From a bacterium (GTDB lineage Bacteria > Patescibacteriota > Minisyncoccia > Portnoybacterales > GWB1-42-6): a stretch of 64,000 nucleotides of DNA. Every line of letters starts with the position of its first letter. Position 1 is the stretch's first letter. The stretch is from NCBI GenBank assembly GCA_043800535.1, contig JAZDMV010000008.1:9251-73250 (forward strand). The letters are read 5' to 3'. A program made the position numbers and the translations under genes. Shown piece after piece: positions 3,346 to 57,757 of this stretch. Under the pieces are notes generated by a model. That model did not search any database. It was not told where the DNA came from and saw nothing but the letters and a program-made list of their open reading frames with translations.

Positions 3346-5361
3346 TTACAAAAGTGTTTGTGGGTCTATATCTATTTCCCAGCCGTGCGGCACAAACATT
3401 AAAAGCTTATTGCGGACACGCAGAAGGTTTTCATGTTCGTCTTGCTTTGCAAGCCAGTAGGGCTTTGCCTTGATGATTATCTGCCAGATGTATCTACTTT
3501 TTTGTCTGGCAATAAACGCGGGAACTGCGTCGCTTATCTCAAACACGGCTTCATTTAGAATCTTACCCCCACACTTTAAATCATGCAACTGCGTAGTCGG
3601 CGGTAAAATTGTTTTTTCATCATTAGATTCAATTGTGGCGGTTTGGTCTAAAAAGTGAGGGGGTTTACTTGTTTTTAGCTGTTGGGTCAATTTGGCAGAC
3701 AGAATTTTTGCCTCGTTAGCGGCTTTTGCCGGGTCGCGGTGGCGGAAAACAAGTTTTATTAACTGTGAGAAGGGCGGATATTTAAGGGCTTGTCTGGTTT
3801 CTATTTCTTGTTTATAAAAAGCGTCCCAGCGGCCGACAGCGGCATATTTTAACGCTGCGGCAGACGGATTATAAGTTTGAATGATAAAGGAACAGCCGGC
3901 TGTTTTTTGACTGACTTGTAATTTATGGTCTGGATTCCCGCTTTCGCGGGAATGACAGAAAAGCAGATTTTTTAATTGCGCTATCGTCTGAAACATTTTT
4001 TCGTCAGACCGAAAATCTGGCAAATGCATTAGGGTGTCAGCGGAAATTATTGCGACAAGCGGCACTTTGGGAATATCCGCATTTAATATCATTTGCGTGC
4101 CGATTAAAATGTCGGCCTTTTTTTGGCGGAATTCTTCAATAATTTTATTCTGCTGGATCGCGTCCGGCGCGGTATCGCTGTCCAGCCGCAAAATTTTGGC
4201 GTCCTTGAATAATTTTTGCGCTTCCTGTTCCACTCGTTGCGTCCCGGTCCCGAATGCCTTAATCCTGGAGCTCTGGCATTTTGGGCAAAGTGATGGTGGC
4301 TGTGATTTTTTTCCGCAGTGGTGGCAGATAAGGATCGGTTTTTGTAATTCACCGGATTTTATCAGGTGATACGTGAGTGGCGCCTCGCAACTGGCACATT
4401 TTTCAACATAGCCGCAGTCGCGGCACAAAACAAAAGTGGCCAATCCTCGGCGGTTGATGAATAGAATTACCTGTTGTTTATTTTTGAGCGTTTGCAGAAT
4501 TTCGTCTTGAAGCTGCCGGCTGAATATGGAAAAATTGCCGTCACGCAGTTCCTGGCGCAGGTCAATAATGGACGGAGCCAGACCAGGTACAGCATACCTT
4601 AGATCGGGGTTCTTCTCCGTCTGAGGGTCAGAAGAAAGATAATGTGATTCAATTGAAGGCACGATACTTTTTAGGATCAGCTTTGCATTAAAAATCTCTG
4701 CCAATTTTTTTGTTATTTCATGCACACGATAGTGGGGGAACATGTCCCATGAGTAATGTACAGGATTGGTTTCGTCTTCAATCGTAATTTTTTTAAGGTT
4801 GCAGAAGGGCGCAAAAACAGCAAGGCGCGTGCCGATAATTATTTGTGCTTGGCCCGAGGCAATCTTTTGCCAGGCCTGGGAAAGGTCTTTTGCTTTGAGG
4901 CCGCTATGGATTAGGACGCGGCGGGCTGGGGAAACCTTTTTTGCAAGTATGTCTATTTGCGACACAGTCGGCACGAGAATTAGTATCTGATTTTTATTTT
5001 CACGGTTTGCTGTTAACTGTTTACTGTTAACTTTTTTTGGCATCATCATTTTCAAAAACGCCCCAGGGGAAACAAAATAATACTCGCCCAGCCACAGGGC
5101 GAGTTCGATCTGCTGTTTTGTGAAAATGGGTGTTTCTGACAGGACTTTTTTTATGGGTCGCAATTCATATTCAGCGTCTTTTATTTCCATTTTGCGGCCC
5201 GCGATTTCGTGATTTGCAACAACTGCTGCTTTTTCCTGGCGGCGGCCAAGCGGCACTAAAACTAGACAGCCCACAGCTAAAACCTGGGCTGAAAAATAGC
5301 TAAGAGTTTGAGATCTCTGGAGGGGGGTTTTCGTTAATGGTACTACCTCGGCGAGATACAT
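3346..5361 (-). CDS. priA: Primosomal protein N' (replication restart helicase PriA)
   Basis: N-terminal 3'BD-like VPLGRR region, DEAH-type helicase core, Cys4 zinc-binding cluster (CRDCG...CASC...CHHCG...CPKC) and C-terminal domain. Carries an in-frame repeat-element insertion at 3929-3958. Confidence 0.9.
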   Translation of the reverse strand: MYLAEVVPLTKTPLQRSQTLSYFSAQVLAVGCLVLVPLGRRQEKAAVVANHEIAGRKMEIKDAEYELRPIKKVLSETPIFTKQQIELALWLGEYYFVSPGAFLKMMMPKKVNSKQLTANRENKNQILILVPTVSQIDILAKKVSPARRVLIHSGLKAKDLSQAWQKIASGQAQIIIGTRLAVFAPFCNLKKITIEDETNPVHYSWDMFPHYRVHEITKKLAEIFNAKLILKSIVPSIESHYLSSDPQTEKNPDLRYAVPGLAPSIIDLRQELRDGNFSIFSRQLQDEILQTLKNKQQVILFINRRGLATFVLCRDCGYVEKCASCEAPLTYHLIKSGELQKPILICHHCGKKSQPPSLCPKCQSSRIKAFGTGTQRVEQEAQKLFKDAKILRLDSDTAPDAIQQNKIIEEFRQKKADILIGTQMILNADIPKVPLVAIISADTLMHLPDFRSDEKMFQTIAQLKNLLFCHSRESGNPDHKLQVSQKTAGCSFIIQTYNPSAAALKYAAVGRWDAFYKQEIETRQALKYPPFSQLIKLVFRHRDPAKAANEAKILSAKLTQQLKTSKPPHFLDQTATIESNDEKTILPPTTQLHDLKCGGKILNEAVFEISDAVPAFIARQKSRYIWQIIIKAKPYWLAKQDEHENLLRVRNKLLMFVPHGWEIDIDPQTLL
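3929..3958. repeat. Copy A of the GGATTCC-hairpin-GGAATGACA element, inserted in frame in priA
   Basis: tctGGATTCCCGCtttcGCGGGAATGACAg; translates on the minus strand as CHSRESGNPD inside PriA. Confidence 0.75.
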
Positions 5362-6277: not shown

Positions 6278-6859
6278 ATGAAGAAGCGAATTTTCATAGC
6301 GATCAACTTGTCCGAGGACCTAAGGAAAAAACTTCTTATATTTAGGGACAAATGGGAGTTTTTACCAGTGCGTTGGACAAAAAAGGACAGCCTGCATTTA
6401 ACGCTGGTTTTTATTGGTTACGTGGACGAAGAGGAAATTTATGAGGCTTGCCGGCTGGCCAGGGGAGTTGCGGCGCGGCACGAGGCGTTTGACATAGGTT
6501 TTGAAAGAATTTTATATGGCCCTCCTGCCCTTCGACAAGCTCAGGGTAAAGCACCGCGGATGATTTGGCTTGAGGGAAAAGCGAATGAAAAGTTATCAAA
6601 ATTAAAACTTGAACTCGATGATGTTTTAGCGTCTTCTGAAAGTTTACGTTCTTTCAGGCCGGAAAGACGTCCGTTTTCGCCGCATATCACTTTGGCCAGA
6701 ATGAATATGGACAAATGGCGTGACCTGTCAGAACAGCCGGCAATTGAGCAGGAATTAAAGGCAATTGTGCCGGTTGCGAGCATAGAAGTAATGGAAAGCG
6801 ATTTGAGATGTGATGGAGCGGAATACACGATATTGGAAAGCTGTCCGCTTGAAGGGTAA
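6278..6859 (+). CDS. thpR: RNA 2',3'-cyclic phosphodiesterase (2H phosphoesterase, LigT/ThpR family)
   Basis: Two H-x-T-x motifs (HLTLVF and HITLAR), about 190 aa. Confidence 0.8.
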   Translation: MKKRIFIAINLSEDLRKKLLIFRDKWEFLPVRWTKKDSLHLTLVFIGYVDEEEIYEACRLARGVAARHEAFDIGFERILYGPPALRQAQGKAPRMIWLEGKANEKLSKLKLELDDVLASSESLRSFRPERRPFSPHITLARMNMDKWRDLSEQPAIEQELKAIVPVASIEVMESDLRCDGAEYTILESCPLEG

Positions 6860-6888: not shown

Positions 6889-7054
6889 AGTTCTCGACGC
6901 GTTCCGCACGGTGCGGGGCTTGCTCGAACGATAACTCTTCGACAGGCTCAGGATAAAATTTATTCTTCGAGCCCTTCGACCCATTCGACTGCTGCTCAGA
7001 GTGGTGAGCAAAGTTGAACCATGGGTTCAGGGTAAACTTGAGTCGAGAAGTTGA
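6889..7054. repeat. Intergenic composite inverted-repeat element (TTCTCGAC / GTCGAGAA family), copy 1
   Basis: Shares AGTTCTCGACGCGT..GGGCTTGCTCGAA.GATAA and TTCGAGC...GAGTCGAGAAGTT modules with 56705-56826, in swapped order. Confidence 0.6.
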
Positions 7055-13949: not shown

Positions 13950-14070
13950 ATAAATTTAAAGTTAAAAGTGCAAAATTTTTGTATCCCACGGGGGGATGAT
14001 TATATAATTGTGTGTTTTTTGTAGCAAGAAAAAACGTGCACCTAAATTTTTCATTTTTCATTTTTAACTT

Positions 14071-15228
14071 ATGTTGATCGGCATTGATGCACACTGGCTG
14101 GAGGGGAATCGCACCGGCGTTGGCCGGTACCTTTTTAATTTACTCAAAGCTTGGTCCCGTTCCGAATCTGACATACTCTCCCGTGCTCCCGAGCACGGGA
14201 GAGTATGTCAGGTAAAGTTTGTATTGTATTTTAAGGACGAGATACCGAAAGATTTGCCGCAGTCGTCTTTGTTTAAGGTAATGCTTCTAAATGTGAAAAG
14301 CACGGCTAAATTCATCCATTGGGACTTGTGCCGGGCGGCTTGCAAGGATAAGGTGGATGTCCTGTTTTGTCCCGCATATATTGCGCCGCTATTTTATAGC
14401 GGTAAAATCGCGTTAACGCTCCATGACATAATCTATGAAACGCATCCGGAATGGTTTGAATGGAAAAGCTGGGCAGATAAGATTTTGCTCAAATGGGTTT
14501 CAAAGATCTCGGCGCGCAAGGCGGCTTTAATTTTTACCATTTCTGATTTTTCGCGGCAGGAAATTATCGAATATTTTAGGATCAAAGCAGAAAAAATAAA
14601 GGCAATCCCTTTGGCAGGAGACATCGGGGAGGTAGCGGAAGGGGGAAGCGATGAGATACTGAAAAATCAATTCGGCATCAAAGACCGGTTCGGATTTTAT
14701 GTCGGCTCGATTTTTAACCGGCGGCATTTGTCCGAAATAATTGACGCGTTTTCCAGAATTGCGCAGGAAAGATCAGATTTTCAGCTGTTGCTGGCTGGTA
14801 AAGACCATACAAAGCCCGCACAGGACATAAGAGGCAAGGCCGAAAAGGTAAATAAAAAATTGGAGCGGCATGCGATTTTAAGGGTTGATTTTGTGAACGA
14901 TCATGAGTTAAAATTATTGTATAACGCATGTGCGTTTTTTATTTACCTTTCCGATTACGAAGGGTTTGGATTGCCACCCTTGGAAGCGATGGCCTTGGGC
15001 GCGCCAACCATAACCAGCGATGCAACTTCGCTAAAAGAAGTGGCTGGTTCGGCCGCGCTGTTGGTGAAAGAAAATTCAGATACAGAAGAAATTTATCAGG
15101 CGATGAAGAAGATTATAGACGAGGAAGCATTGCGGTCGCGGCTGATAGAAAAAGGCAAGGAGCAAGCGGCGAAATTTTCCTGGAAAAAATGTGCGGAGGA
15201 GACATTATCAGAATTATTAAACGCGTGA
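14071..15228 (+). CDS. Glycosyltransferase family 4 carrying an in-frame palindromic-repeat insertion
   Basis: GT4 N-terminus MLIGIDAHWLEGNRTGVGRY and C-terminal EGFGLPPLEAMALGAP motif. The 42-nt palindrome at 14169-14210 is translated as DILSRAPEHGRVCQ. Confidence 0.8.
   Translation: MLIGIDAHWLEGNRTGVGRYLFNLLKAWSRSESDILSRAPEHGRVCQVKFVLYFKDEIPKDLPQSSLFKVMLLNVKSTAKFIHWDLCRAACKDKVDVLFCPAYIAPLFYSGKIALTLHDIIYETHPEWFEWKSWADKILLKWVSKISARKAALIFTISDFSRQEIIEYFRIKAEKIKAIPLAGDIGEVAEGGSDEILKNQFGIKDRFGFYVGSIFNRRHLSEIIDAFSRIAQERSDFQLLLAGKDHTKPAQDIRGKAEKVNKKLERHAILRVDFVNDHELKLLYNACAFFIYLSDYEGFGLPPLEAMALGAPTITSDATSLKEVAGSAALLVKENSDTEEIYQAMKKIIDEEALRSRLIEKGKEQAAKFSWKKCAEETLSELLNA
14169..14210. repeat. 42-nt perfect palindrome (CATACTCTCCCGTGCTCC family), copy 1, in-frame within the GT4 gene
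   Basis: TGACATACTCTCCCGTGCTC-CC-GAGCACGGGAGAGTATGTCA; 20+2+20 nt, 14 codons. Confidence 0.9.
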
Positions 15229-15267
15229 TAAGCTGGATATCCTAGTTTTCTCATTTCTTTATTTCCT

Positions 15268-15318
15268 AATTTCTAGGTGATGGAAATCAGGAAACTGAGA
15301 AATTAGGAAATTATCAGG
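15268..15318 (+). terminator. AT-rich 14-bp stem hairpin after the GT4 gene (terminator/attenuator-like)
   Basis: ATTTCCTAATTTCT...AGAAATTAGGAAAT perfect inverted repeat. Confidence 0.35.
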
Positions 15319-16912: not shown

Positions 16913-17965
16913 ATGCTATCGGTTTCTGTCAATTTGGTTACATACAATGGCCGGCGATTTATTGAAAATTGTTTAAAGTCTGTTTTGCGGCAGACATACC
17001 CGAAAGTTGAGATTTTGATAATTGATAACGCGTCTCAAGATAATACAGTGTTGATGGCGCAGGAAATTATCGGCAAAGAAAATCCTAAATTTCCAGTGCG
17101 TATAATTAAAAATGAAAAAAATCTCGGTTTCTCAGCTGGCCATAATTTGGGGATAAAGGAAAGCAGGGGAGAATTGGTTGTCTGTTTGAATCAGGACGTG
17201 GTGCTGGTACCGGATTTTATTGAAAAAGCTGTTGAGTTTTTTGAAAAAAATGGCCAAACTGAAATTGCAGCGCTTCAGCCAAAGCTTTTACGGCTTGATA
17301 AGGAGTTGCAGCCGTCCAGCATTATTGATACGACAGGTTTGGTAATGTTAAAAAACCGGCGGATTATTAGTCGCGGTCAGGGGCAGAAAGACGAAGGGCA
17401 GTATGGTAATATAGAAGAAGTATTTGGCGCGGATGGAGCCGCGCCGGTCTATAAAAGAGACGCGTTGGAAGACGTGAAAATAAATGTCAAATGTCAAATG
17501 TCAAATGTCAAAACCGCGGATGGCGAATACTTTGATGAGGACTTCTTTGCTTATAAAGAAGACGTTGATTTATCGTGGCGTTTACGTCTAGCCGGTTGGA
17601 AAATTTTTTATGTTCCCAAAGTCATAGCCTGGCATGGTCGTAGCGCCGGAGACAGTACAGCCACTAATTATTTTGCCATTATCAGAGAAAGATTAAAAAT
17701 TAGTAAATTTGCCAAATACGTAGCTTTTAAAAACCAAAGATTGATGCAGATAAAAAATGAGCAGCTATTTCTTTTATTAAAACACTTACCGCGATTTTTG
17801 GTTAAAGAAATCAGTTCTTGGACATATGTAATTTTATTTGAGCGATTTACGTGGTCGGCAATTAGAGACCTATTTAGGCAGGCACCGCGCGCTTTTCAAA
17901 AACGTAAAATAATTATGGAGAGCAGAAGAGCCAGCGTAAACGAAATGGGAAAGTGGTTTATTTAA
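16913..17965 (+). CDS. Glycosyltransferase family 2 containing an internal heptanucleotide repeat
   Basis: IIDNASQDNT, LNQDVVL and YKEDVDLSWR motifs. (AAATGTC)x4 at 17482-17509 encodes INVKCQMSNVKT. Confidence 0.8.
   Translation: MLSVSVNLVTYNGRRFIENCLKSVLRQTYPKVEILIIDNASQDNTVLMAQEIIGKENPKFPVRIIKNEKNLGFSAGHNLGIKESRGELVVCLNQDVVLVPDFIEKAVEFFEKNGQTEIAALQPKLLRLDKELQPSSIIDTTGLVMLKNRRIISRGQGQKDEGQYGNIEEVFGADGAAPVYKRDALEDVKINVKCQMSNVKTADGEYFDEDFFAYKEDVDLSWRLRLAGWKIFYVPKVIAWHGRSAGDSTATNYFAIIRERLKISKFAKYVAFKNQRLMQIKNEQLFLLLKHLPRFLVKEISSWTYVILFERFTWSAIRDLFRQAPRAFQKRKIIMESRRASVNEMGKWFI
17482..17509 (+). repeat. Heptanucleotide tandem repeat (AAATGTC)x4 inside the GT2 CDS
   Basis: Four perfect 7-nt units followed by AAA; the unit length is not a multiple of 3. 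Confidence 0.9.
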
Positions 17966-24158: not shown

Positions 24159-24593
24159 ATGTCAACGTCAGAAAAAGCAATTAAAATAGGGGAGTGGGCA
24201 AAGAAAAATCAGGGCGATATAGCGCTTGTGGCGGGATTTGTTTTAGTTGCCCTGATAAGCTTTGGGCTCGGTTATCTTAGCGCCCCCGGTGTTTCAAAAA
24301 GCGAACTTAAAATACAGGATTTGCAGTCCGACATCAGCCAGACGGCGGTGGACGCGGTAGTGGGGGACGGTGCGGCGGTTAACATGGGCAATTCGCAGCC
24401 GAGCACGGAAAAAGGCACTATTGTTGCGTCAAAATACGGCACAAAATATCACTGGCCCTGGTGTAGTTTTGCAAAAAATATAAAACCGGAAAATGAAGTT
24501 TGGTTCAAGACCGAGGCCGAAGCGAAGGCAGCAGGGTATTCGGCCTGTGGCTGTATCAAAAGCAAAGCGCCGGCAGGATACACGGCGCAATGA
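24159..24593 (+). CDS. Membrane-anchored protein with C-terminal Ada-type zinc-binding motif
   Basis: N-terminal TM. C-terminus YHWPWCSFAKNIKPENEVWFKTEAEAKAAGYSACGC matches the Ada N-terminal metal-binding pattern (C...ikpeN.v.F...EA..AGy.pC..C). Confidence 0.55.
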   Translation: MSTSEKAIKIGEWAKKNQGDIALVAGFVLVALISFGLGYLSAPGVSKSELKIQDLQSDISQTAVDAVVGDGAAVNMGNSQPSTEKGTIVASKYGTKYHWPWCSFAKNIKPENEVWFKTEAEAKAAGYSACGCIKSKAPAGYTAQ

Positions 24594-24613
24594 AATCCTT
24601 AGAAGCTTACTAG

Positions 24614-24651
24614 ACATACACTCCCGTGCTCCCGAGCACGGGAGTGTATGT
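24614..24651. repeat. 38-nt perfect palindrome, copy 2 of the CATAC(T/A)CTCCCGTGCTCC family
   Basis: ACATACACTCCCGTGCTCCCGAGCACGGGAGTGTATGT, 21 nt after the stop of the upstream gene. Confidence 0.9.
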
Positions 24652-24689
24652 GCGATTGGTGTTTTGATGGGAAATAGGGAAAAAATCGT

Positions 24690-31241: not shown

Positions 31242-31309
31242 GTCATTCCGTGCCTGACACGGAATCCAGGTTTGTGGGCCTGGATTCCGGCTTTCGCCGG
31301 AATGACAAC
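31242..31309. repeat. Copy B of the modular AATGACA element (TIR TGTCATTCC...GGAATGACA)
   Basis: TGTCATTCCGTG-cctga-CACGGAATCCAGG-tttgtgg-GCCTGGATTCC-GGCtttcGCC-GGAATGACA; sits between murG and the next gene. Confidence 0.8.
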
Positions 31310-33686: not shown

Positions 33687-33789
33687 CATGCCGGACTTGC
33701 TTGTCCTGCCGCAGCTTTAGCGGAGGCGGAATCCGGCATCCAGAATAAAAAGATGAACCTGGATTCCGGCTTTCGCCGGGGAATGACAA
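33687..33789. repeat. Copy C of the modular AATGACA element (long form)
   Basis: CATGCCGGA-CTTGCTTGTCCTGCCGCAGCTTTAGCGGAGGCGGA-ATCCGGCATCCAG ... CCTGGATTCCGGCTTTCGCCGGGGAATGACA in the ftsW-murD spacer. Confidence 0.8.
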
Positions 33790-35760: not shown

Positions 35761-35929
35761 TTTTTTCTCCTTTCTATCCCGCCGATTCAGGCGGATATTT
35801 GATTTTTTCAAAAGAACACTTCGACAAGCTCAGTGTAAACTCATCTCTTTATAGAGACAGGAATGAAAGGGAGATTGAAAAGCAAAATATTGCCTAACCT
35901 CCCCTCCATACCTGTCGCTACAAGATATT

Positions 35930-36393: not shown

Positions 36394-36950
36394 AATATTT
36401 TTTGCCCTTCCTCCCCAAATTTCATGAGCCATTCATAAAATCTCGGGTGGAAGGGGCAGGCGTATTTCTAATTTTTACCTGCCCCTTTTTTTTGAAATCT
36501 CTAAGGTACTCATTCGGGGCACAGCCGCCTCTGCCTCACGTGTGTTGGTTTTTTATTTTCGTCTGGACCATGCCCGTGATACAAACCAGACGACCTCATC
36601 CTTGCCATTTAACGGACGTTTTTCGATACGTCCGGGGTGAATGGTCTCAGCTTGCGCTCGAACTTTTGTTCATCGTGAGCTTGCATGCTGGCCAGACACC
36701 TGGATGGATTTCGCTTTTACGCGGAAGGATTTCCCATGCCTTTGGGTTATCCGCAACCTCCTAAGAGGAAAATGTGGCGGGTCTTGCCTAGGGACCCATT
36801 CGTCAATCTTTATCTAATGACTCTCACCTCCCTCTCCTGAAGCGGCGCGAGCTTTGTCGGCCGCTGGCTGAAATTTCCCGATTTCCTACTATATCATAAA
36901 TAAAAAACCTTGTCAAGAGTTGGCAAGGGTTTAGTCGTAACGATGAATTT

Positions 36951-36993
36951 AACTCACCCCACCCCTCTCTTTAAAAAAGAGAGGGAGTTTTTT
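36951..36993. repeat. AACTCACCCCACCCCTCTCTT...AAGAGAGGGAG hairpin repeat, copy 1 (terminator-like)
   Basis: Near-identical to 57711-57747; lies after the mraY stop. Confidence 0.7.
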
Positions 36994-38041
36994 AAATTAC
37001 TTTATCCAGAAACGCAAGGATTAGGCCGACGGCCGCGGTCATGCCGGAAATTATCCAGAAACGCATAGTGACTTTTGTTTCGGGCCAGCCCTTGCCTTCA
37101 AAATGGTGGTGTATCGGCGTTGATAAAAATATCTTTTTGCCGCCTCGCAATTTTTTTGAAATCGTCTGAATGATGACAGAAAGCGATTCTATCATCGGAA
37201 TAAAAGCAATGAGCGGCAGAAGCAGAAATTGGTTTGTTAGCATGGCGATTATGCCAAGCGTGATGCCGAGAGCCACTGCGCCAGTGTCACCCATAAAAAA
37301 ACGGGCCGGGTGGATATTGAACCATAAAAATGCCAGTAGCGCGCCGATAATGACGGCGCAAAAAGCCGTCAGATCATACCGGCCGAGCGAATATGCTATA
37401 GCGCCATAAGCGCCAAAAGCAGCCAGAAGCGTGCCGCCAGCCAGGCCATCAAGGCCGTCGGTTTCGTTAACAGAAAAAGCGGTGGCAACAAGAATGAAAA
37501 TAAAAACGGGGATATACCAGAGTCCAATATTAAAATCACCGACAAAAGGAATATGCACAATGCTCCATTCAAGTTTTGAAAAGAACCACCACGCGCCCAC
37601 CGCGGCTATAGCAGTGTAGACTAAAATTCGGTGGCGCATGCGTAATCCCCCGCCCTTTGGGCCGATGCGAAAGACCCCCAGCAGGTCATCGATTAAACCG
37701 ACCAGAGCCGAGGCGACGAGAGCCCCTAAAGGAAGCAAGGTCTCCGCACGGTTAAAAAAATTCATTCTGCCGATAAAAGAATCAATGCCCAGTTTTGGCA
37801 GAAGCCAGAAAATAAAGATCAAAAGCACGACCGTGAACCAGATCAGAATTCCGCCCATTGTTGGAGTCCCCTCTTTTTTTGCGTGCATGGAAGCAAAAAC
37901 CGGCACGCCTTCTGTGCGGATCTGTTTGCCGAGGCGGTATTTATATAAAAAATGGGTTAAGGCCGGCGTCAGAAAAAAAGCCACCAAAAACGCCAGAGCG
38001 CTTAAGGTTAAAATGCGGGAGATTTGGAAGATGTCGGTCAT
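36992..38041 (-). CDS. mraY: Phospho-N-acetylmuramoyl-pentapeptide transferase
   Basis: 10-TM protein with conserved MraY cytoplasmic loops (DDxxG, HHHFE). Confidence 0.9.
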   Translation of the reverse strand: MTDIFQISRILTLSALAFLVAFFLTPALTHFLYKYRLGKQIRTEGVPVFASMHAKKEGTPTMGGILIWFTVVLLIFIFWLLPKLGIDSFIGRMNFFNRAETLLPLGALVASALVGLIDDLLGVFRIGPKGGGLRMRHRILVYTAIAAVGAWWFFSKLEWSIVHIPFVGDFNIGLWYIPVFIFILVATAFSVNETDGLDGLAGGTLLAAFGAYGAIAYSLGRYDLTAFCAVIIGALLAFLWFNIHPARFFMGDTGAVALGITLGIIAMLTNQFLLLPLIAFIPMIESLSVIIQTISKKLRGGKKIFLSTPIHHHFEGKGWPETKVTMRFWIISGMTAAVGLILAFLDKVI

Positions 38042-39262: not shown

Positions 39263-39366
39263 ATTAAATCTCCCCTAACCCCTCCTAAAGGAGGGGAATT
39301 TTATTACTCCCTCCCTTTAGGGAGGGTTGGGGAGGATTTATTTAATAATTTGGACTTTGAGATTTG

Positions 39367-46690: not shown

Positions 46691-46875
46691 AATTTGTTCA
46701 TAATCTAACACAAATACGCATTTTTTTCAAATTAAGTGTTGCGGGGATTGTTTTATTGGGGTATAATAAAAAGAATGTTTTTAAAAAATTATTTACTCCC
46801 TTCTTTGAAAAAGGAGGGGTGGGGTGGATTTAAATCTCCCTTACCCCCTCTTTACGAAAGAGGGGAATTTTTCAG

Positions 46876-48015
46876 ATGAAAAAAAATTACGCAAAGCTAG
46901 GGATTGAGGTGCATAAAAAGATGCACGGAAAAATTTCCGTTGTTTCCAAAAAGCCGGTAAAGACGATGGACGACTTAAGCATTCTTTATACGCCCGGCGT
47001 TGGCGCGGCTTCTTCATATCTTGCGGCACACAAAAACGAAATTCGCGCAATGACGATAAAAAACAATACGGTTGCCGTTGTTTCTGACGGTTCGGCGGTT
47101 CTGGGGCTGGGAAATCTTGGGCCGGAGGGCGCAATTCCCGTTATGGAAGGCAAATGCGTTCTATTCAAGGAGTTTGGCGGGGTTGACGCGTTCCCAATTG
47201 TTTTAGATACACAGAACCCCGACGAAATTGTGGAAACAGTCAAAAACATTGCGCCGATCTTTGGCGGAATTAACCTGGAAGATATTTCGGCGCCGCGATG
47301 TTTTGAAATTGAAGAACGGCTTGAAAAGCTTTTGGATATTCCTCTGATGCACGACGACCAACATGGCACGGCAATAGTGGTGCTGGCTGGGTTGATAAAC
47401 GCTTTAAAGGTTACCGGCAAAAAAGTGTCGCAAAGCAAATTTGTGATTGTCGGCGCGGGCGCGGCCGGAAATGCGACAGCTAAACTTTTGCACGGGATCG
47501 GCGCCGAAGACATTATTGTTTGTGACAGTAAAGGAATAATCGACCGGCGCAGAAAGGATCTAGACCCGTATAAAAAAGCACTGGCAAAAATTACGAATAA
47601 AGATAATGTGTATGGCGGCGTGGCAGTGGCGGCTGAAGGCGCGGACGCGATAATCGGCGTTTCAAAACCGGGTTCTATAACGGCCGAGCACATAAAGTTA
47701 ATGGCAAAAAAACCGATTGTTTTCGCCCTGGCCAATCCGATTCCTGAAATTATGCCGGATGTTGCAAAAAAGGCGGGTGCTTTTATCATTGCCACAGGCC
47801 GTTCCGATTTTCCTAATCAAATCAACAATGTTTTGGGGTTTCCTGGAATTTTCCGCGGGGCGCTTGACCACAATGTCAAAAAAATAACGCCTGGAATAAA
47901 ATTAAAAGCGGCAAAAGCATTAGCCGCCTTGGTAAAGAAACCGAGCCGGACAAATATTGTGCCAAACGTCTTTGACAAACGCGTAGCAAAAGCAGTCGCT
48001 AACGCGGTAAGGTAA
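46876..48015 (+). CDS. NAD(P)-dependent malic enzyme (short form, MaeB-like)
   Basis: LSILYTPGVG..., GAGAAG Rossmann motif and malic enzyme domains; 379 aa. Confidence 0.9.
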   Translation: MKKNYAKLGIEVHKKMHGKISVVSKKPVKTMDDLSILYTPGVGAASSYLAAHKNEIRAMTIKNNTVAVVSDGSAVLGLGNLGPEGAIPVMEGKCVLFKEFGGVDAFPIVLDTQNPDEIVETVKNIAPIFGGINLEDISAPRCFEIEERLEKLLDIPLMHDDQHGTAIVVLAGLINALKVTGKKVSQSKFVIVGAGAAGNATAKLLHGIGAEDIIVCDSKGIIDRRRKDLDPYKKALAKITNKDNVYGGVAVAAEGADAIIGVSKPGSITAEHIKLMAKKPIVFALANPIPEIMPDVAKKAGAFIIATGRSDFPNQINNVLGFPGIFRGALDHNVKKITPGIKLKAAKALAALVKKPSRTNIVPNVFDKRVAKAVANAVR

Positions 48016-48044: not shown

Positions 48045-48086
48045 GTGCATACACTCCCGTGCTCCCGAGCACGGGAGTGTATGCAC
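48045..48086. repeat. 42-nt perfect palindrome, copy 3
   Basis: GTGCATACACTCCCGTGCTC-CC-GAGCACGGGAGTGTATGCAC, 30 nt after the malic enzyme stop. Confidence 0.9.
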
Positions 48087-48098
48087 GAATAGAAACAT

Positions 48099-48125
48099 AA
48101 AGACCCCGCACAATGCGGGGTCTTT
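48099..48125. terminator. Hairpin terminator between malic enzyme and tRNA-Ile
   Basis: AAAGACCCCGCA-caa-TGCGGGGTCTTT. Confidence 0.5.
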
Positions 48126-48158
48126 ATGGCTTCGCCATTCCGAAGCCTTGGCGAAGGA

Positions 48159-48286: not shown

Positions 48287-49039
48287 CTAGTTTGACACTT
48301 GATAGTATTTGTTTGTTCCATTCCATCCCTGTTGGTTGGCCTGCAGGACGCCGGTTCCGCCGCCAGGAGTTGGGGCTGATAGATTAGGCAGGGTGACGCC
48401 TTCGCTGTCATTCTCCAGATTAACATAAAGCGCGCATTTGGAGTTTTCGTCGGCCATGTAATGGTAGTTTGACTGGGTTTCTGTGCCTGTTTGCGGGTCT
48501 TTTGGCACCTGCGAAATATAATTTTGGACCTGCGGGTATTTTATTTTTATTTCATCAAATAATTGGGCGATATCATAATCCCCTGTTCCTTGGTTCGGCA
48601 TATAGCAGGTTGAGCCCGAAAGAAATCTGCCGATCTGAGAAATTTCTGTTTTGCGCCTGACGTCCCTTGCTTTGGCGCGGGCCGGGCCGGTCGCAACAAT
48701 TATAACGCCGGCCAGAACCCCGATAATGGCCATAACTATAAGAAGTTCAATTAGCGTGAAGCCGCGTTTTTTAAAAAAGCCGCGGTATCTCTTTTGGACA
48801 TAAATAATTTGCCACCATCTTTGTCCCAAAAAATAACCGCCCAAAATTCCCGCGGCAAGAAGCACAATCGTGCCAAGCGTATGTATAAAAAACCAATCAG
48901 ACCAGGAAAGGCCAAGGCCGTATGTCGCAAAATTGTTTGAAAGCAGAACGATGACGAAAATTTCAATAAGGCCGTGGAGAATAAAACTTAAAAGACCGCC
49001 CAAAATTACGCAAAAAAATATATAGACGATTTTTTTCAT
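48287..49039 (-). CDS. Fusion protein: N-terminal ~100-aa polytopic membrane domain + type IV pilin-like domain
   Basis: [24 protein letters not shown] prepilin motif occurs at residue ~101 with no in-frame start codon before it. The preceding 100 aa are 3 TM helices. Confidence 0.55.
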
Positions 49040-49436
49040 ATTTTGATTATATCACAGCGTTTCATTTTTGCGTATGCACAAAATCCCCAGCCTTGAGGTA
49101 CTGGGGGCTTTATTAAAAGAGCGTGGGCATAATTTTAATAATATTTGCGACCGCACAGAGCGCTTCGCATCTGTGCGCCGAAGTGCATGACGGCGTCCAG
49201 GCGAGGCGCTCTGTGCGGGCACGAACAAACTGAATTTATAAGGGGGATGTTATTGTCCGTGCCGCGTATTAAAATCAATTTAATCATATCCCGCAAAGAT
49301 TAAATTCTTATTAAGGTTGATTCATAAGTTTATTACGAATATGGCTTGAAAAAGTTTCAATAAGTCTGCTTGTATAAGCACAAAAAAATGCCCGGAAGCA
49401 AAAGTTCCGGGCTAAGTTTGACGATAAAGGTCTGAT

Positions 49437-51985: not shown

Positions 51986-52525
51986 ATGTCAGATAAGTTT
52001 AACAAATTAGCGCGAGAATTAAAAAACGGAGATCGCCGGGCCGGCGAACAGATCTTTGGCAGTTTCAGCGCTCCGATATTCCGATTCTTTCTGGTGAAGA
52101 CTTCAAGCCGCGAGACGGCTGAGGACCTGACCCAGGAAGTTTTTTTGAAATTAATTGATAAAATAGACACATTTGACGAGAATTTAGGTAGCTTTTCGGG
52201 ATGGTTTTGGCAGATAGCAAAGAATACTGTCAAGGATTATTACCGCAAAAAGAAATCGTTTCCCCTTTCGGATATGGCGTTGCAGGCGAAAGAAAAAAAT
52301 GATTATGCAGAGCAGAAGAATGACTTGAGGAATGAAATAAAAATGACGGAAATTCTGGAATTAATAAAGGAGCTTAATGAGGACGAACAGGAAGTATTTT
52401 CGCTGCACTATCTTTCTGACTTGGCTTATCGGGATATAAGCCGGGCGCTGGGAAGATCGGAAAGTTCGCTTAGGGTTCTGGTCCACAGGATAAATAAAAA
52501 AATAAGAAAACTTTTAGAGCAATGA
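51986..52525 (+). CDS. ECF-type RNA polymerase sigma factor
   Basis: Region 2 (DLTQEVFLKL...FSGWFWQIAKN) and region 4 (YRDISRALGRSESSLRVLVHRINKKIRK). ATG at 51986. Confidence 0.85.
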   Translation: MSDKFNKLARELKNGDRRAGEQIFGSFSAPIFRFFLVKTSSRETAEDLTQEVFLKLIDKIDTFDENLGSFSGWFWQIAKNTVKDYYRKKKSFPLSDMALQAKEKNDYAEQKNDLRNEIKMTEILELIKELNEDEQEVFSLHYLSDLAYRDISRALGRSESSLRVLVHRINKKIRKLLEQ

Positions 52526-53283
52526 TAGGATTTTTTAAAAAAAAGGCAATAGAATGGCGCCTGCGCGCAAAACTGCGTAAACAGTTTAGCCCGCGGCCCG
52601 AATTTCTGGCTTATTGCCGGGCTATTTTTCTCGAAAAAGCGGCGCAGAGGAATCCGGCCGGGCAGACCAAGCTGGCAGGCGGTTTTTATTTTGCCAGTTT
52701 TGCTAGATACAGTTTAGTTTCGTTTTTTGTTCTGTTGTTTTTGGGCAGCGGCGCGGCTGTCTATGCAGACGCGACAAACGTCAGCTACGGCCATCCGCTT
52801 TACAATTTTAAACTGGCAGTTGAGACAGTGCGCGTCAAAGTGGCGCCAGGCGGAAAAGCCGCAGTTTTGCGCACCGAATTTGCCGAGCGCCGCGTACAGG
52901 AAATAAAAATAGTCACAACGCAGAAACCAATGGCCGAGGCCGCTGAAAGCACAAAAGCTGAAAATGTAAAGGATGGCGTGCAAACAAAGGCAGGAGCAAA
53001 AGAACAGGAACACCAGCAAAAGATGGCTGATCTGCGCAGTCACTTAAAGAAGCAGGTTGATCTGGTCGTTGAGGAAATAGAAGAAAAGAAAGCAAAAAGC
53101 GCCAGCGCGGCAGAATTATGCGATTCTATGTCGCGGGTGATGAAGGAAGATGAAGAAATTGACAGAGAAGAGACAAAGGAGGAGCACGAACAGAGCTGGG
53201 CTCGCTTCAAAAAAAATTGCAGCGAATTTATGAATGACAAAGATAGCGGCAAGGTTAAAAACCGCGAAAGCAGCAATGACTGA
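52522..53283 (+). CDS. Putative anti-sigma factor (single TM, E/K-rich extracytoplasmic domain)
   Basis: Translationally coupled to the sigma gene (ATGA overlap). One TM at residues about 55-78. Confidence 0.5.
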   Translation: MIGFFKKKAIEWRLRAKLRKQFSPRPEFLAYCRAIFLEKAAQRNPAGQTKLAGGFYFASFARYSLVSFFVLLFLGSGAAVYADATNVSYGHPLYNFKLAVETVRVKVAPGGKAAVLRTEFAERRVQEIKIVTTQKPMAEAAESTKAENVKDGVQTKAGAKEQEHQQKMADLRSHLKKQVDLVVEEIEEKKAKSASAAELCDSMSRVMKEDEEIDREETKEEHEQSWARFKKNCSEFMNDKDSGKVKNRESSND

Positions 53284-53473
53284 ACAATAACGAGCTGGGC
53301 GTCAACAAGGCCTCTTTTCGCGGGGCTTTTTTATTTGCTTTAAGATAACAGAAGAATAATTTTTGTAACAAAGGCAATTTTTGAGCGTATTGATAAACAG
53401 ACAAGCAGAGGTTTTTATTTTATTTAATTTTTGTAAAGGTCGAACTTTAAACAATTAAGACAAATTCCAGCTT

Positions 53474-54055
53474 ATGAAAAAATTAGCAGCTAGATTAGCC
53501 ATGTTTCTGGGAGTTTTTACGCTTGCCTTGAGCCCGGTGCTGGCTGTCGCCACATACGCGGCGACAACGCATGCCTGGCTTGTTTCGGGCACCGCCACAG
53601 AAATTACAAGCACCAGCTTAAAGCTGACGCGCGGCAACAAGGTCTATACTGTGAATGTTTCCTCTTCTGCGACCGTGGTTGATAATGACTGGCAGGATAT
53701 CTCTTTAAACGAAATCCACACGGGTGACCGAGTTTTTGTTTTTGGCAAGGTTAATGATGTGACGATTGAGGCGATTTACGTCAAAGACAGGTCTGTGCCG
53801 GTTAAAATAGATGTCAGGGAAATGTCAGGAACGGCATCAAGCGTCTCTTCCGCTTCGTTTAGCTTAAAACGGGGAAGCAAGACGTCAACCATCAATATCG
53901 GCTCGCACACCATGCTGTTTGACAAGAACTGGGGAAATATAAGCTTGAGCGATATAAAAGACGGGCATCGGGTGACGGTTTACGGCCGGACCACTGATAA
54001 CGGCGCGACAGTTAACGCGGTATATGTAAAGGACAAAGATCTGCCTGCGTCTTAA
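53474..54055 (+). CDS. Secreted protein with two ~60-aa tandem beta-rich repeats
   Basis: Signal peptide; repeats LKLTRGNKVYTVNV...VTIEAIYVKD and FSLKRGSKTSTINI...ATVNAVYVKD. Downstream of the sigma/anti-sigma pair. Confidence 0.6.
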   Translation: MKKLAARLAMFLGVFTLALSPVLAVATYAATTHAWLVSGTATEITSTSLKLTRGNKVYTVNVSSSATVVDNDWQDISLNEIHTGDRVFVFGKVNDVTIEAIYVKDRSVPVKIDVREMSGTASSVSSASFSLKRGSKTSTINIGSHTMLFDKNWGNISLSDIKDGHRVTVYGRTTDNGATVNAVYVKDKDLPAS

Positions 54056-54101
54056 AAGGCGCAATAAAACAGTTCTTTTTCTTGCAAGACTAAAATAATT
54101 G

Positions 54102-54140
54102 ATAAGCAAAAATCCCCCGCACGGTGCGGGGGATTTTTGC
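54102..54140. terminator. Bidirectional terminator
   Basis: AAAAATCCCCCGCA-cggt-GCGGGGGATTTTTGC. Confidence 0.8.
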
Positions 54141-54160
54141 TTTAAACTAGTTAAATGTTT

Positions 54161-54943
54161 TTAACTTTTTCTGTTAAATGCAAGCACCGCCGCAGATATC
54201 ATGACAACAGAAAACCCGATAAGAAAAAGCAGGTTTACCATTAGCGGAAAAACGACAAGGCTGCTTAATACCTTTTGGGAAACGACATTATCCAAAATAA
54301 CGCGGCGCATGGCATCCACGCCGTAAGTCAAAGGATTTATGCGGGAAATCACTGTCATCCAGGTCGGCACGTTTGTCAGCGGGAAAAACGCGCCTGAAAG
54401 AAAGAACATGGGAAAAACCAGCACCTGCATGACCAAACCGAAAGTTTCGGTCGTTTTCATAAGCGAAGCGATAAGCAGACCAATGCCGGCGATGGCAAAG
54501 GAAAGGATTATCATCAGACCGAACAACTGGATGATCGTGAAAATATGCAGCTGCACGCCGATAAAAGGCGCGATGATAAGCAGGATCAGGCCCTGGAGCG
54601 AAGCGATGGTGGCGGCGCCCAGCGCCTTGCCGATGGAAATGGAAGTGCGCGGAATAGGCGCCACTAAAATTTCTTTTAAGAAACCAAACTCTCTGTCCCA
54701 GACGGTTGAAACGGTTGAAAAAAAGGCAATACCCATGACATTCATGGCGATTATGCCCGGGTACATGAATTTTATAAAATCAACGCCAAAATTGCCCTGC
54801 GTTAGGGTTTGGCTCAGGCCCGCGCCGAAAATGAACAGAAACATTATTGGCTGGAAAAACGAAGAAACGATCCTTGTTTTATCGCGCCAATATCTGATTA
54901 TTTCGCGCCGCCAGATTGTAATGATGGGCTGGATCAGGTTCAT
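54161..54943 (-). CDS. ABC-2 type transporter permease
   Basis: 260 aa, 6 TM, ABC-2 family pattern. Downstream of the ATPase gene. Confidence 0.8.
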   Translation of the reverse strand: MNLIQPIITIWRREIIRYWRDKTRIVSSFFQPIMFLFIFGAGLSQTLTQGNFGVDFIKFMYPGIIAMNVMGIAFFSTVSTVWDREFGFLKEILVAPIPRTSISIGKALGAATIASLQGLILLIIAPFIGVQLHIFTIIQLFGLMIILSFAIAGIGLLIASLMKTTETFGLVMQVLVFPMFFLSGAFFPLTNVPTWMTVISRINPLTYGVDAMRRVILDNVVSQKVLSSLVVFPLMVNLLFLIGFSVVMISAAVLAFNRKS

Positions 54944-54962
54944 ATTATTGCAAAATGTAATT

Positions 54963-55004
54963 TGACATACTCTCCCGCGCTCCCGAGCGCGGGAGAGTAT
55001 GTCA
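54963..55004. repeat. 42-nt perfect palindrome, copy 4
   Basis: TGACATACTCTCCCGCGCTC-CC-GAGCGCGGGAGAGTATGTCA between the ABC ATPase and permease genes. T/A to C/G compensatory pair relative to copy 1. Confidence 0.9.
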
Positions 55005-55017
55005 TGTTTGAGTTTAT

Positions 55018-55992
55018 CTACCTTCGCATCCTCATGCCGAACCGCTGTTTCATAAAATCTTTTCCGTCGGCTTCTTCTTCGCGGATCTTGCGTCCCGTCA
55101 AATGCAAAAACACGTCATCAAGAGTCGGCTTGCGAAGCTCTATTGAATCAATTTTTGTTTTTAGATCGTTGAACAGCCGCGGCAGGAATTTTTCGCCGTC
55201 CGGCACTTCTATGCGCAGGCCGCTCCCCTGCTCTTTTACCTCTTTGGCATAGAGAGCGCTTAATTCTTTTTTAAGGTTTTCTTTGTCAGCAGTTTCCATA
55301 TAGATTATGTCGCCGCCGAGCATCTTTTTTAAGTTTGCAGGCGTGTCCAGGGCCACAATTTTTCCGTTATCAATTATTCCGATGCGGTCGCAGTGTTCAG
55401 CTTCGTTCATATAATGCGTGGTCATAAAAATAGTCATTTGCTTTTCGCGCTTGAGTTTTATTACATATTCCCAGATATGGGCACGGGTCTGGGGGTCAAG
55501 TCCGAGCGTGGGTTCGTCCAAAAACAGGACAGCCGGATAATGGGTCAGCCCGCGGGCAATTTCAAGGCGTCTCTTCATGCCGCCGGAAAATGTTTTAACA
55601 ATGTCGTCTTTTCGGTCCCATAAGTCAACAAGCCGCATAACTTCTTCAATTCTGGCGTTGTATTGGTCTTTTGGCACGCCGTAAAGCTCAACATGGAAAC
55701 AGAGGTTTTCTTCGGCAGTCAGGCGGTCGTCAAGCGAAGGGTCCTGGAACACAAGGCCGATGGATTTGCGTACTTCGTTCTGCTGGTTGGTTATGTCAAA
55801 GTTATTGACCGTGGCAATGCCACTGGTCGGGGTTGTTATGGTTGCGAGCATATTTGTCGTGGTTGATTTACCCGCGCCATTTGGCCCGAGGAAACCAAAA
55901 ATTTCCCCTTTTTTTACGTCAAAGGAAACTGAATCAACGGCCGTGCGGCCGTTAAATTTTTTTGTCAGATTTTTTACCTCAATGATATCCAT
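55018..55992 (-). CDS. ABC transporter ATP-binding protein
   Basis: Walker A GPNGAGKST, signature LSGGMKRRLEIA, Walker B LFLDEPT. Confidence 0.9.
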   Translation of the reverse strand: MDIIEVKNLTKKFNGRTAVDSVSFDVKKGEIFGFLGPNGAGKSTTTNMLATITTPTSGIATVNNFDITNQQNEVRKSIGLVFQDPSLDDRLTAEENLCFHVELYGVPKDQYNARIEEVMRLVDLWDRKDDIVKTFSGGMKRRLEIARGLTHYPAVLFLDEPTLGLDPQTRAHIWEYVIKLKREKQMTIFMTTHYMNEAEHCDRIGIIDNGKIVALDTPANLKKMLGGDIIYMETADKENLKKELSALYAKEVKEQGSGLRIEVPDGEKFLPRLFNDLKTKIDSIELRKPTLDDVFLHLTGRKIREEEADGKDFMKQRFGMRMRR

Positions 55993-57697: not shown

Positions 57698-57710
57698 GTA
57701 TTTAAATTAT

Positions 57711-57747
57711 AACTCACCCCACCCCTCTCTTAAATTAAGAGAGGGAG
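57711..57747. repeat. AACTCACCCCACCCCTCTCTT...AAGAGAGGGAG hairpin repeat, copy 2
   Basis: Matches 36951-36993; between convergent gene ends. Confidence 0.7.
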
Positions 57748-57757
57748 AAGAGTAAAA

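Follow-up and report, generated by a model that had tools for sequence, protein, structure and literature searches.

A perfect 42-nucleotide palindrome in frame in a patescibacterial GT4 glycosyltransferase gene: probably a dispersed hairpin repeat in a tolerant loop

How a perfect palindrome came to lie in frame within an intact glycosyltransferase gene, and whether it is translated as a part of the enzyme, are the questions raised by this locus. An earlier note on the window (i.e., the whole 64-kb stretch of DNA that was analysed) had placed a 42-nt palindrome at 14169-14210 in the open reading frame of a GT4 enzyme, and both the sequence and the uninterrupted frame agree with this placement. 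The features concerned are the following:

14071..15228, plus strand: GT4 (GT-B) glycosyltransferase gene, intact, 385 amino acids; the identical 385-aa protein is annotated by NCBI.
14071..14154, plus strand: N-terminal β1–loop–α1 segment of 28 codons, MLIGIDAHWLEGNRTGVGRYLFNLLKAW, upstream of the palindrome and conserved in orthologues.
14168..14211, no strand: perfect palindrome, in its hairpin form a 20-bp stem with a CCCG loop; the 42-nt family core is 14169-14210.
14170..14211, plus strand: 14 added codons D34-Q47, DILSRAPEHGRVCQ, in frame with the GT4 ORF.

The inverted repeat is read directly as CTGACATACTCTCCCGTGCTC-CC-GAGCACGGGAGAGTATGTCAG, with two arms of 21 nt each (14168-14188 and 14191-14211) that are 100% complementary around a 2-nt centre. 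None of 100 dinucleotide shuffles matches the palindrome pattern, and the folded RNA reaches -43.4 kcal/mol (z = -10.3 against 200 shuffles). The GT4 frame is stop-free through the palindrome with all 385 codons open, and its N-terminus as well as the VKFVLYF that follows the palindrome read exactly as had been claimed. The 42 nt amount to 14 codons in the loop between the first β–α unit and the next strand, a proposed position that corresponds to the α1–β2 connection and is also seen in the AF2 model. Since the palindrome splits a would-be TCG serine codon (TC/T...CA/G), the loop without it would read SRSES-VK. In two of the three codon phases (1 and 2) the 42-nt unit is stop-free on both strands. 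A slippery heptamer was not found 5' of the hairpin, which speaks against a -1 frameshift signal. As the frame is open and the sequence on either side is conserved, the ribosome probably reads through the palindrome.

The assignment of the host as a GT4/GT-B glycosyltransferase is borne out by both Pfam domains, namely Glyco_transf_4 (PF13439; aa 16-180, 36.8 bits at a cutoff of 28.5, with the insert spanned) and Glycos_transf_1 (PF00534; aa 200-364, 93.5 bits), by the AF2 model (pLDDT 87, pTM 0.84), which has the two-domain GT-B fold, and by its Foldseek matches to GlgM (6tvp), MshA (3c4q), BshA and WaaG (E 1e-17 to 1e-13, TM ~0.7). The E-x7-E motif (E297-GFGLPPL-E305) and the glycine-rich β1–α1 loop (T15-G16-x-G18-R19) do not vary among 33 orthologues, the window protein being one of them. 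The gene lies in a cell-envelope glycan cluster comprising SpoIID/amidase, GT2, GT4, Wzy_C, GT2, LytR and GT2. According to the model residues 32-37 of the α1–β2 connection form a short helix and residues 38-48 a coil, with pLDDT below 50 only at 42-45, and this loop is located on the side of the N-domain (Rossmann-like) that faces away from the catalytic cleft. The enzyme has presumably kept its function despite the 14-residue insert, and a hairpin of about -40 kcal/mol situated 98 nt into the ORF could have lowered its expression.

The palindrome belongs to a dispersed family with four copies in the window, i.e., the GT4 copy and three others:

24612..24653, no strand: copy B, 18 nt past the stop of the ORF 24159..24593 (plus strand).
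48045..48086, no strand: copy C, 29 nt past the stop of the malic enzyme gene 46876..48015 (plus strand).
54963..55004, no strand: copy D, 13 nt past the stop of an ABC ATPase, in a 74-nt spacer.

Neighbours of copy D are the ABC ATPase 55018..55992 and the ABC-2 permease 54161..54943 (both minus strand). Four more copies were found in related contigs, all of them in three contigs (L083-L085) of one JGI sample, Ga0315277. The site of copy D is also occupied in L084, a contig of ~84% identity, and as these two copies are orthologous the eight copies represent seven independent sites. Five of these sites lie 2-29 nt past a stop codon and a sixth overlaps the stop, so that the GT4 copy is the sole intragenic one (one of the four window copies). 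In the L085 copy the stop codon is supplied by the end of the repeat. Sites orthologous to that of copy B carry unrelated hairpins in L086, L087 and L089, and 10 nt downstream of copy C there is a different hairpin which, with its G+C-rich stem and the TTTAT after it, resembles a terminator (48096-48128). A core of 36 nt is common to the GT4 copy and to copies B, C and D; the flanks that the intergenic copies have in common (AAATGTAATT on the left, GATTGG on the right) are missing from the GT4 one. Neither a target-site duplication nor a direct duplication in the flanks of the eight copies is visible.

Across the copies 93% of the cells of the 20-bp helix are paired and six pairs have changed on both sides, and within the 17-bp core just a single cell is unpaired; both the pairing and the covariation exceed those of all 500 shuffles. 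Window copy D and its L084 orthologue differ by one compensatory double change (T..A to A..T) and one C.A mismatch. Such double substitutions suggest that the two arms change in concert and thereby stay complementary, be it through hairpin-templated correction or through conversion of one copy by another. The exact palindrome pattern has no match in GTDB species genomes, so the family is narrow, and no match in viral contigs, phage records or plasmids, hence nothing points to a phage or plasmid as its source. Among the about 57 ORFs of the window no transposase, RAYT, integrase or Y1_Tnp domain was found; a mobilising activity that spread the copies is presumed. A protein search with all translated palindrome frames and their variants gave no hit at E<=10, as matches of 13 aa are too short to become significant among 5.8 billion sequences.

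With a probability of roughly 0.7 we consider the GT4 palindrome as a selfish or 3'-end hairpin repeat of the REP/RPE kind that came to lie in a tolerant loop and is now read by the ribosome as coding sequence. This family usually resides in the first 0-30 nt past stop codons, where it may act as a transcribed 3' stem-loop or be tolerated as selfish DNA. One copy would have entered the coding stretch of the GT4 α1–β2 loop, or have replaced an older hairpin there. As the unit of 42 nt equals 14 codons the downstream frame was kept, and survival of the gene would have been favoured by the two stop-free phases on either strand and by a tolerant helix-to-strand loop away from the catalytic cleft. 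The ribosome would then pass the hairpin and produce an enzyme with an additional surface loop of 14 residues, in which the insert probably rides along as a passenger with no regulatory role. Events of this kind are known from the RPEs of Rickettsia and from intragenic REPs; new here are the family and the phylum.

The α1–β2 loops of the orthologues are most informative in this respect. None of about 115 orthologues has the insert peptide, and the alignment with these orthologues shows conserved flanks on both sides, in line with a 14-aa insertion as claimed before. Their loops range from 6 to 47 residues with 6-10 aa being most common, and the GT4 loop minus its insert would have 7 aa. In distant orthologues the loop comprises 6-10 aa and is hairpin-free, whereas in closer ones it contains 7-nt tandem arrays (about 24 of 115 orthologues), nested GC hairpins or other palindrome families. 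In the 49 orthologue loci for which DNA was folded, loops of <=11 aa have z-scores near 0 (lowest -3.1, in L019), while among the 15 loops of >=13 aa hairpins occur in 12 and 7-nt tandem arrays in two. The repeat families differ from genome to genome, and further copies of the loop inserts of L005 and L009 are found elsewhere in the same loci. Since the loop is short and bare in distant orthologues and filled with repeats in closer ones, it is, judged from these sequences, a permissive hot spot for repeats. Such recurrent hairpins and arrays could even reflect selection at the level of the nucleic acid, beyond mere tolerance. The nearest orthologue is 67% identical to the window GT4, and in the absence of a closely related allele with an empty site the insertion event itself is not directly seen.

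The loop of this nearest orthologue (L001) already has a degenerate hairpin (CAAACTC/GAGTATG versus CATACTC/GAGTATG in the window), so “inserted” may also stand for re-invasion or conversion of an older hairpin. It is possible, albeit rather unlikely, that a hairpin predating the split from the L001 lineage was overwritten by conversion, or that its apex gained the GC-rich inner hairpin CTCCCGTGCTCCCGAGCACGGGAG; the GT4 loop may then even be the birthplace of the composite. In the neighbour-joining tree the window protein is sister to P0002/L001, and the same-site hairpins of L001, L086 and L087 are built on CA[TA]ACT..AGTATG, which is the outer part of the window arms. Elsewhere in the fetched loci, CATACT-N4-AGTATG occurs only in the GT4 loops of L086 and L087 and in an unrelated short hairpin of L034. 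GC hairpins nested centrally in older repeats are found in L004, L010, L088 and L089, such nesting can be followed in protein pairs (e.g., P0031 to P0050 and P0070 to P0024), and the double change between copy D and L084 demonstrates that concerted change occurs. On the other hand the shared 7-mer has another codon phase in the window than in L001, L086 and L087, so that simple descent needs extra indels, and a 7-nt match may arise by chance (rough estimate 0.003 per comparison). Moreover, copies B, C and D share the entire core and not just its inner part, and the tree is star-like with HTTEYD-type inserts scattered across it.

Phase-variable LOS glycosyltransferase genes are contingency loci in Haemophilus, Neisseria and Campylobacter. 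The GT4 family resembles them in having repeats near the 5' end of the ORF of a surface-glycan glycosyltransferase, and in the orthologues with 7-nt arrays slippage of a unit would shift the frame; the window copy differs in being a palindrome of 3n length instead of a tandem array. A functional device, in which the loop-coding stretch is kept for a role of the nucleic acid, with arrays as ON/OFF switches by slippage, hairpins modulating elongation, mRNA decay or transcription, and the window palindrome as this genome's own version, appears doubtful to us. It would suit the occurrence of arrays and, in many other orthologues, hairpins in one and the same loop, their location ~90-140 nt into the gene, which is typical of contingency loci, and the maintained base pairing. 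The apex CATACT-ACAG-AGTATG is moreover identical in L086 and L087 although each of these proteins is only 55-59% identical to that of the window. Against it, the device is dispensable since many orthologue loops are short and without structure, a unit of 42 nt is unable to switch the frame, the hairpin has neither a slippery site before it nor a T-run after it, and the palindrome also follows unrelated genes. Within clusters of 90% identity no polymorphism in the number of 7-nt units was found, and length differences result from start-codon or truncated gene calls and not from the loop.

That the palindrome is untranslated, because the true start is downstream and the repeat part of the 5' UTR or because the gene is a pseudogene or split, is very improbable. 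Such a stable hairpin is unusual early in an ORF, no Shine-Dalgarno sequence is evident ahead of the ATG at 14071, and the orthologues P0090 and P0151 are annotated with a start after the loop. These “short” orthologues are artefacts: in one the W28 codon has become TAG, the N-terminal codons being still present ahead of it, and the other (P0151) ends with its contig inside the repeat. The pattern MLIGIDAH.LEG.RTGVGRY..LL..W is kept in >100 syntenic orthologues (about 115 overall), and E11, G12, T15, G16, G18, R19, L24 and W28 ahead of the palindrome are invariant in 33 aligned orthologues. Codon differences from L001 in the N-terminal 28 codons are mostly synonymous (seven against five non-synonymous). 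The next in-frame ATG is only at residue 71, with a TTG codon at L52 in β2; the Pfam Glyco_transf_4 alignment runs from residue 16 across the insert, and the 385 codons have no stop. Considering the fold and the AF2 model the N-domain needs β1–α1, and to our knowledge a GT-B N-domain without it cannot fold. As the N-terminus before the palindrome is conserved and the genes are syntenic, the start is placed upstream of the palindrome and the downstream start, which the earlier note had named as the alternative, is rejected.

Least probable of all are a protein-binding operator, a DNA-uptake signal, an intrinsic terminator or an assembly artefact, which would go with the perfect symmetry and with several copies near gene ends, but paired changes among the copies of one genome suit a hairpin or templated process better than two half-sites, no T-run follows the stem (tails GGTAAAG, GATTGG, GAATAG and TGTTTG), the terminator scan did not call it, copy C has its own terminator-like hairpin, and the copies recur in independent contigs with the same 385-aa protein in NCBI. 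At the Rfam gathering threshold only two tRNAs were detected; generic sub-threshold hairpin matches in a local E-value search (miRNA precursor families, mraW RNA) were rejected, as was a promoter reading of TTGACA...TATGTC because of its spacing of about 30 nt.

The window contains another in-frame repeat family, as had been stated, with a hairpin repeat in the gene of PriA:

3346..5361, minus strand: PriA gene with in-frame repeat; FCHSRESGNPD is encoded by the hairpin repeat 3929-3959.

A LigT-like ORF and a GT2 gene are two more such cases, and this presence of several families in one genome, with in-frame repeats in PriA, LigT, GT2 and GT4, recalls the RPEs. Further similarities are dispersed palindromes in a reduced genome, located in frame in unrelated housekeeping genes and adding a peptide compatible with the fold. 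RPEs, as summarised in PMC10969869 from Ogata et al. 2000, 2002, have ~100-150 bp, encode conserved peptides characteristic of each family and, in some families, lie within genes in nearly half of the copies, whereas the unit described here has 42 nt, forms a single perfect hairpin of 20 bp and is intragenic at one of seven independent sites. Being a 42-nt unit from a Patescibacteria MAG it would, according to that description of RPEs, fall outside the Rickettsia families RPE-1 to RPE-10. With REPs it shares the small size (~20-40 bp; here 42-44 nt, repeated), the position mainly just 3' of coding regions and between co-directional genes, ends that serve as stop codons (L085) and occasional intragenic copies, notably in replication or repair genes (here PriA, with another family). 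Intragenic REPs and RPEs, including REP ends used as stop codons, are documented (PMC3733652, PMC10969869). REP stems have 5-13 bp (GTAG) or 8-9 bp (CGTC) and an unpaired GTAG/CGTC tag (Di Nocera et al. 2013, PMC3733652); in contrast, the stem here is perfect over 20 bp and untagged, with no GTAG/CGTC in or beside the unit. Its units are single instead of head-to-head dimers, the copy number appears modest, and a RAYT gene is lacking among the ORFs of the window. MITEs (ERIC, BOX and Correia among others), for which intragenic in-frame copies are described (PMC10969869, PMC2759123), are likewise small non-autonomous repeats able to fuse in frame with host ORFs. They differ in having terminal inverted repeats around an internal segment, a target-site duplication and a cognate IS, whereas here the whole unit is one palindrome with no visible duplication and no known IS.

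Several consequences emerge for annotation and evolution. Gene callers and assemblers break at the loop repeats (P0090, P0151), and the peptides that such repeats yield on translation (e.g., CHSRESGNP, LRQAQGK and DILSRAPEHGRVC) may wrongly be taken for protein motifs. The about 115 orthologues provide a series from the bare loop via 7-nt arrays to nested hairpins and thus a natural record of selfish or structural DNA turning into the sequence of a protein loop. Rickettsia offers the best-known example of palindromic repeats that colonise genes in frame, and such colonisation occurs also in ultra-small Patescibacteria. Only tentatively, and as an unlikely extension, we suggest that the loop-coding segment is a maintained landing pad or contingency site and that in-frame repeats in housekeeping genes are possibly a general, undescribed feature of CPR bacteria similar to that of Rickettsia. 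Hairpins and arrays might be targeted there, e.g., by inserting at the apex of hairpins that already exist in single-stranded DNA, or alternatively be favoured there by selection as a means of varying or switching a surface glycosyltransferase, and the arms might be kept perfect by hairpin-templated repair. If the loop indeed acts as a switch, it would be the first contingency locus in CPR bacteria.

The earlier note had reported a 42-nt palindrome placed in frame within the glycosyltransferase (GT4) gene and read as 14 codons. This observation is confirmed and its interpretation supported. At 14168-14211 we find CTGACATACTCTCCCGTGCTC-CC-GAGCACGGGAGAGTATGTCAG, in which a 2-nt centre separates two arms of 21 nt with 100% complementarity; the 42-nt core is at 14169-14210. 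Matches to the palindrome pattern never arise in dinucleotide shuffles of the window, and the RNA of this region folds with -43.4 kcal/mol (z = -10.3). The 385-aa ORF (14071..15228, forward strand) is stop-free across the palindrome, and the added codons (14170-14211, residues 34-47) encode the peptide DILSRAPEHGRVCQ. The unit splits a would-be TCG serine codon; without it the loop reads SRSES-VK. Phases 1 and 2 of the 14-codon unit are open on both strands and phase 0 alone starts with TGA, so that a unit landing at random in coding DNA would be read through in about two of three cases. Survival of the gene would rest on this conservation of the frame, and selection on the protein would decide the remaining cases. 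Neither a slippery site before the GT4 hairpin nor a T-run after it is present, and the terminator scan did not call an intrinsic terminator here. Translation through the palindrome, function of the enzyme and mobility of the repeat are predictions.

The assignment of the host to GT4 holds as well. Pfam detects Glyco_transf_4 at residues 16-180, spanning the insert, and Glycos_transf_1 at residues 200-364, and an AF2 model based on 33 orthologues (pLDDT 87, pTM 0.84) matches the GT4 enzymes GlgM, MshA, BshA and WaaG. In this model strand b1 (2-6), helix a1 (16-30) and a short helix (32-37) are followed by coil (38-48) and strand b2 (49-54), which puts the insert between the first beta-alpha unit and the next strand, as had been proposed; pLDDT is below 50 at residues 42-45 only. 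Database search with the protein returned 5543 relatives. An identical 385-aa protein in NCBI is annotated as family 1 glycosyltransferase of a MAG, and the best other match shows 67% identity. The gene order around GT4 is the same as in the orthologue loci (SpoIID/amidase, GT2, GT4, Wzy_C, GT2, LytR, GT2, S41 protease).

A start codon downstream of the palindrome can be dismissed. Across 33 aligned orthologues, the stretch upstream of the palindrome, described as family-typical, contains the invariant residues E11, G12, T15, G16, G18, R19, L24 and W28, and the protein has an intact E-x7-E motif. Compared with the sister orthologue L001, the first 28 codons show seven synonymous and five non-synonymous changes, and therefore the upstream start is real. 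Two apparently short orthologues are artefacts: P0151 starts at a contig end inside a repeat, and in locus L090 a TAG (880-882) replaces the invariant W28 codon while the conserved N-terminal 27 codons are still found upstream, hence the database protein P0090 begins with MTNVKF, past the loop. This TAG could mark a pseudogene or an OFF variant, or it could be a sequencing error. AT-rich repeats with a period of 7-8 nt flank the GT4 gene (14040-14070 and 15240-15311), with TTCATTT x2 upstream and inverted arrays TTTCTCA/TTTCCTAA...GGAAATCA/GAAATTAG forming a long AT-rich hairpin downstream; similar repeats occur upstream of the L001 gene.

Four palindrome copies are present in the window (14169, 24612, 48045 and 54963), and a JGI metagenome scan revealed four further ones, all from a single sample, where they lie on three short contigs. 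One of these contigs, L084, about 84% identical to window 52103-55605, has the palindrome in the orthologous spacer.

Positions of palindrome copies relative to genes
Copy B, 24612: 18 nt past a stop
Copy C, 48045: 29 nt past a stop
Copy D, 54963: 13 nt past an ABC ATPase stop, 19 nt ahead of a permease start
Contig L083: 2 nt past a stop
Contig L085, first copy: 22 nt past a stop
Contig L085, second copy: provides the TAA stop itself

Gene 3' ends account for six of the seven independent sites, the GT4 copy being the exception. The intergenic copies have additional flanks in common (AAATGTAATT left, GATTGG right), which the GT4 copy lacks. Copy C is followed by a separate terminator-like hairpin at 48096-48128 (G+C-rich stem, then TTTAT). 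Sites orthologous to copy B in other genomes contain unrelated hairpins; thus the 3' stem-loop is constant there and the filling sequence lineage-specific. On L085 the two copies (2574-2615 and 1974-2015) have opposite orientation and bracket, about 560 nt apart, a 180-aa ORF that takes its TAA stop from one of them.

Over the eight copies the 20-bp helix has 93% of its cells paired; six pairs are altered on both sides, and the 17-bp core contains a single unpaired cell. Of 500 shuffles none attained this degree of pairing or covariation, and slid registers drop to 26-59% pairing. Between copy D and its L084 orthologue, whose flanks are about 89% identical, the palindrome shows one double change (T..A to A..T) and a single change making a C.A mismatch. 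Since one mismatch in 20 bp hardly lowers stability, we infer that a concerted mechanism keeps the arms complementary, through correction templated by the hairpin or conversion among copies, rather than selection on each pair.

For the a1-b2 loop, 80 orthologue loci were fetched from GTDB genomes and several more via protein identity. Among 49 loci with clear anchors the loop has 6-11 aa in 38, and the DNA of these short loops folds no better than shuffles (exception L019, z = -3.1). Loops of at least 13 aa contain hairpins in 12 of 15 cases and 7-nt tandem arrays in two.

Inserts in the a1-b2 loop of individual loci
Window: 21+21 nt palindrome
L002: 10+10 perfect repeat within a 19-bp stem
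L087: perfect 20-bp hairpin
L086: 16-bp hairpin
L001: degenerate hairpin
L008: AT-rich hairpin
L004, L010, L088, L089: GC-rich hairpins nested between 7-nt repeats
L005, L009: 93-114-nt TGTCATT..GATGACA elements, peptide CHSEAEGRR...SLKMT, with more copies elsewhere in the same loci
L003, L007: GTTCAAA x4

Loop length in 115 orthologue proteins varies between 6 and 47 aa, and some pairs resemble successive steps: SKFNIK to SKFNIKAQVPNVK, SKLANSEWLIANSK to SKLANSEW-PASLSNRGE-LIANS, and SRLNFQFPISNFQ to SKLNFQFP-RQRRGSPGA-AISNFQ. The insert types are scattered over a neighbour-joining tree, and therefore different repeat families have colonised the loop on repeated occasions. In general Rossmann topology the helix-to-strand connections are on the side facing away from the catalytic cleft, and this position would explain the tolerance of inserts. 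In about 24 of the 115 orthologues (among P0004-P0070) the loop has 13 aa and is encoded by 7-nt tandem arrays, with differing heptamers; several longer loops resemble arrays of this type that have a GC-rich hairpin of 27-36 nt nested at their centre, and in L004 the loop heptamer also fills the intergenic DNA directly upstream of the GT4 gene.

The loop may have held a hairpin already before the palindrome. In L001 the degenerate hairpin is built on CAAACTC..GAGTATG, and L086 (4969-4984) and L087 (4220-4235) have an identical apex, CATACT-ACAG-AGTATG (peptide HTTEYD/E), in proteins each only 55-59% identical to the window GT4; their lower stems differ and are still complementary. No further copies of this apex were found in these two 15-16-kb loci, and the HT[TP]EY motif occurs in eleven orthologue proteins. 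The window arms hold CATACTC/GAGTATG in another codon phase, as part of the outer stem. Besides a fresh insertion, the palindrome may have re-invaded an old hairpin site, other palindrome copies may have converted the old hairpin, or a GC-rich inner hairpin may have been nested into the older apex.

Further genes of the window contain repeats read in frame.

3346..5361, reverse strand: PriA, hairpin repeat at 3929-3959 read as FCHSRESGNPD
6278..6859, forward strand: LigT-like ORF (2'-5' RNA ligase-like), repeat CTTCGACAAGCTCAGGGTAAA at 6530-6550 read as ALRQAQGK
16913..17965, forward strand: GT2 gene, (AATGTCA)x4-5 array at 17476-17511 read as INVKCQMSNVK

From these cases in-frame repeats look common in this genome. 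The PriA repeat is an insertion of about 16 extra residues relative to E. coli PriA (alignment to 6dcr_A) and belongs to the hairpin repeat TCTGGATTCCCGCTTTCGCGGGAATGACAGA (3926-3959, 31279-31309, 33758-33788, 59863-59893). It is presumably the first of the two in-frame families counted by the earlier note. Other copies of CTTCGACAAGCTCAGGGTAAA (6937-6957, 35819-35839) lie outside ORFs called as genes. Slippage by 7 nt would shift the GT2 frame, so this array could be a contingency repeat; its peptide also makes up the a1-b2 loop in P0007, a GT4 orthologue. Another, apparently intergenic hairpin family is CCCCTCTC..GAGAGGG(G) (TAACTCACCCCACCCCTCTCTT...AAGAGAGGGAG) at 36950-37008, 57710-57768, 39264-39284 and 46797-46866. 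In a pilin-like ORF (48287..49039, reverse strand) the N-terminal methylation motif comes at residues 90-113, so that translation probably begins further downstream than the first start codon; directly upstream of the longest form of this ORF lies a GC-rich 25-nt inverted repeat (49144-49225).

Pfam scans of about 57 window ORFs yielded no transposase, REP-associated transposase (RAYT) or integrase, and searches of GTDB and of phage, plasmid and viral collections detected no palindrome copy. Rickettsia palindromic elements (RPEs) and intragenic repetitive extragenic palindromes (REPs) are dispersed palindromes that lie mostly 3' of genes, sometimes provide stop codons and sometimes sit in frame within genes, notably those of replication and repair (PMC10969869, PMC3733652). 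They represent the same phenomenon, but the window palindrome is not a member of the REP, RPE or MITE families: REPs have a GTAG or CGTC tag and a stem of 5-13 bp whereas its stem of 20 bp is without tag, RPE units have 100-150 nt instead of 42 nt, and the terminal repeats and duplication of MITEs are missing. Literature search, dominated by CRISPR and general MITE/REP papers, returned no account of such elements in Patescibacteria. The GT4 case adds a new example to a kind of event already known; the phylum is new, and the perfect stem of 20 bp is unusual. That one and the same loop was colonised recurrently among the orthologues is a more interesting result than the GT4 copy itself.
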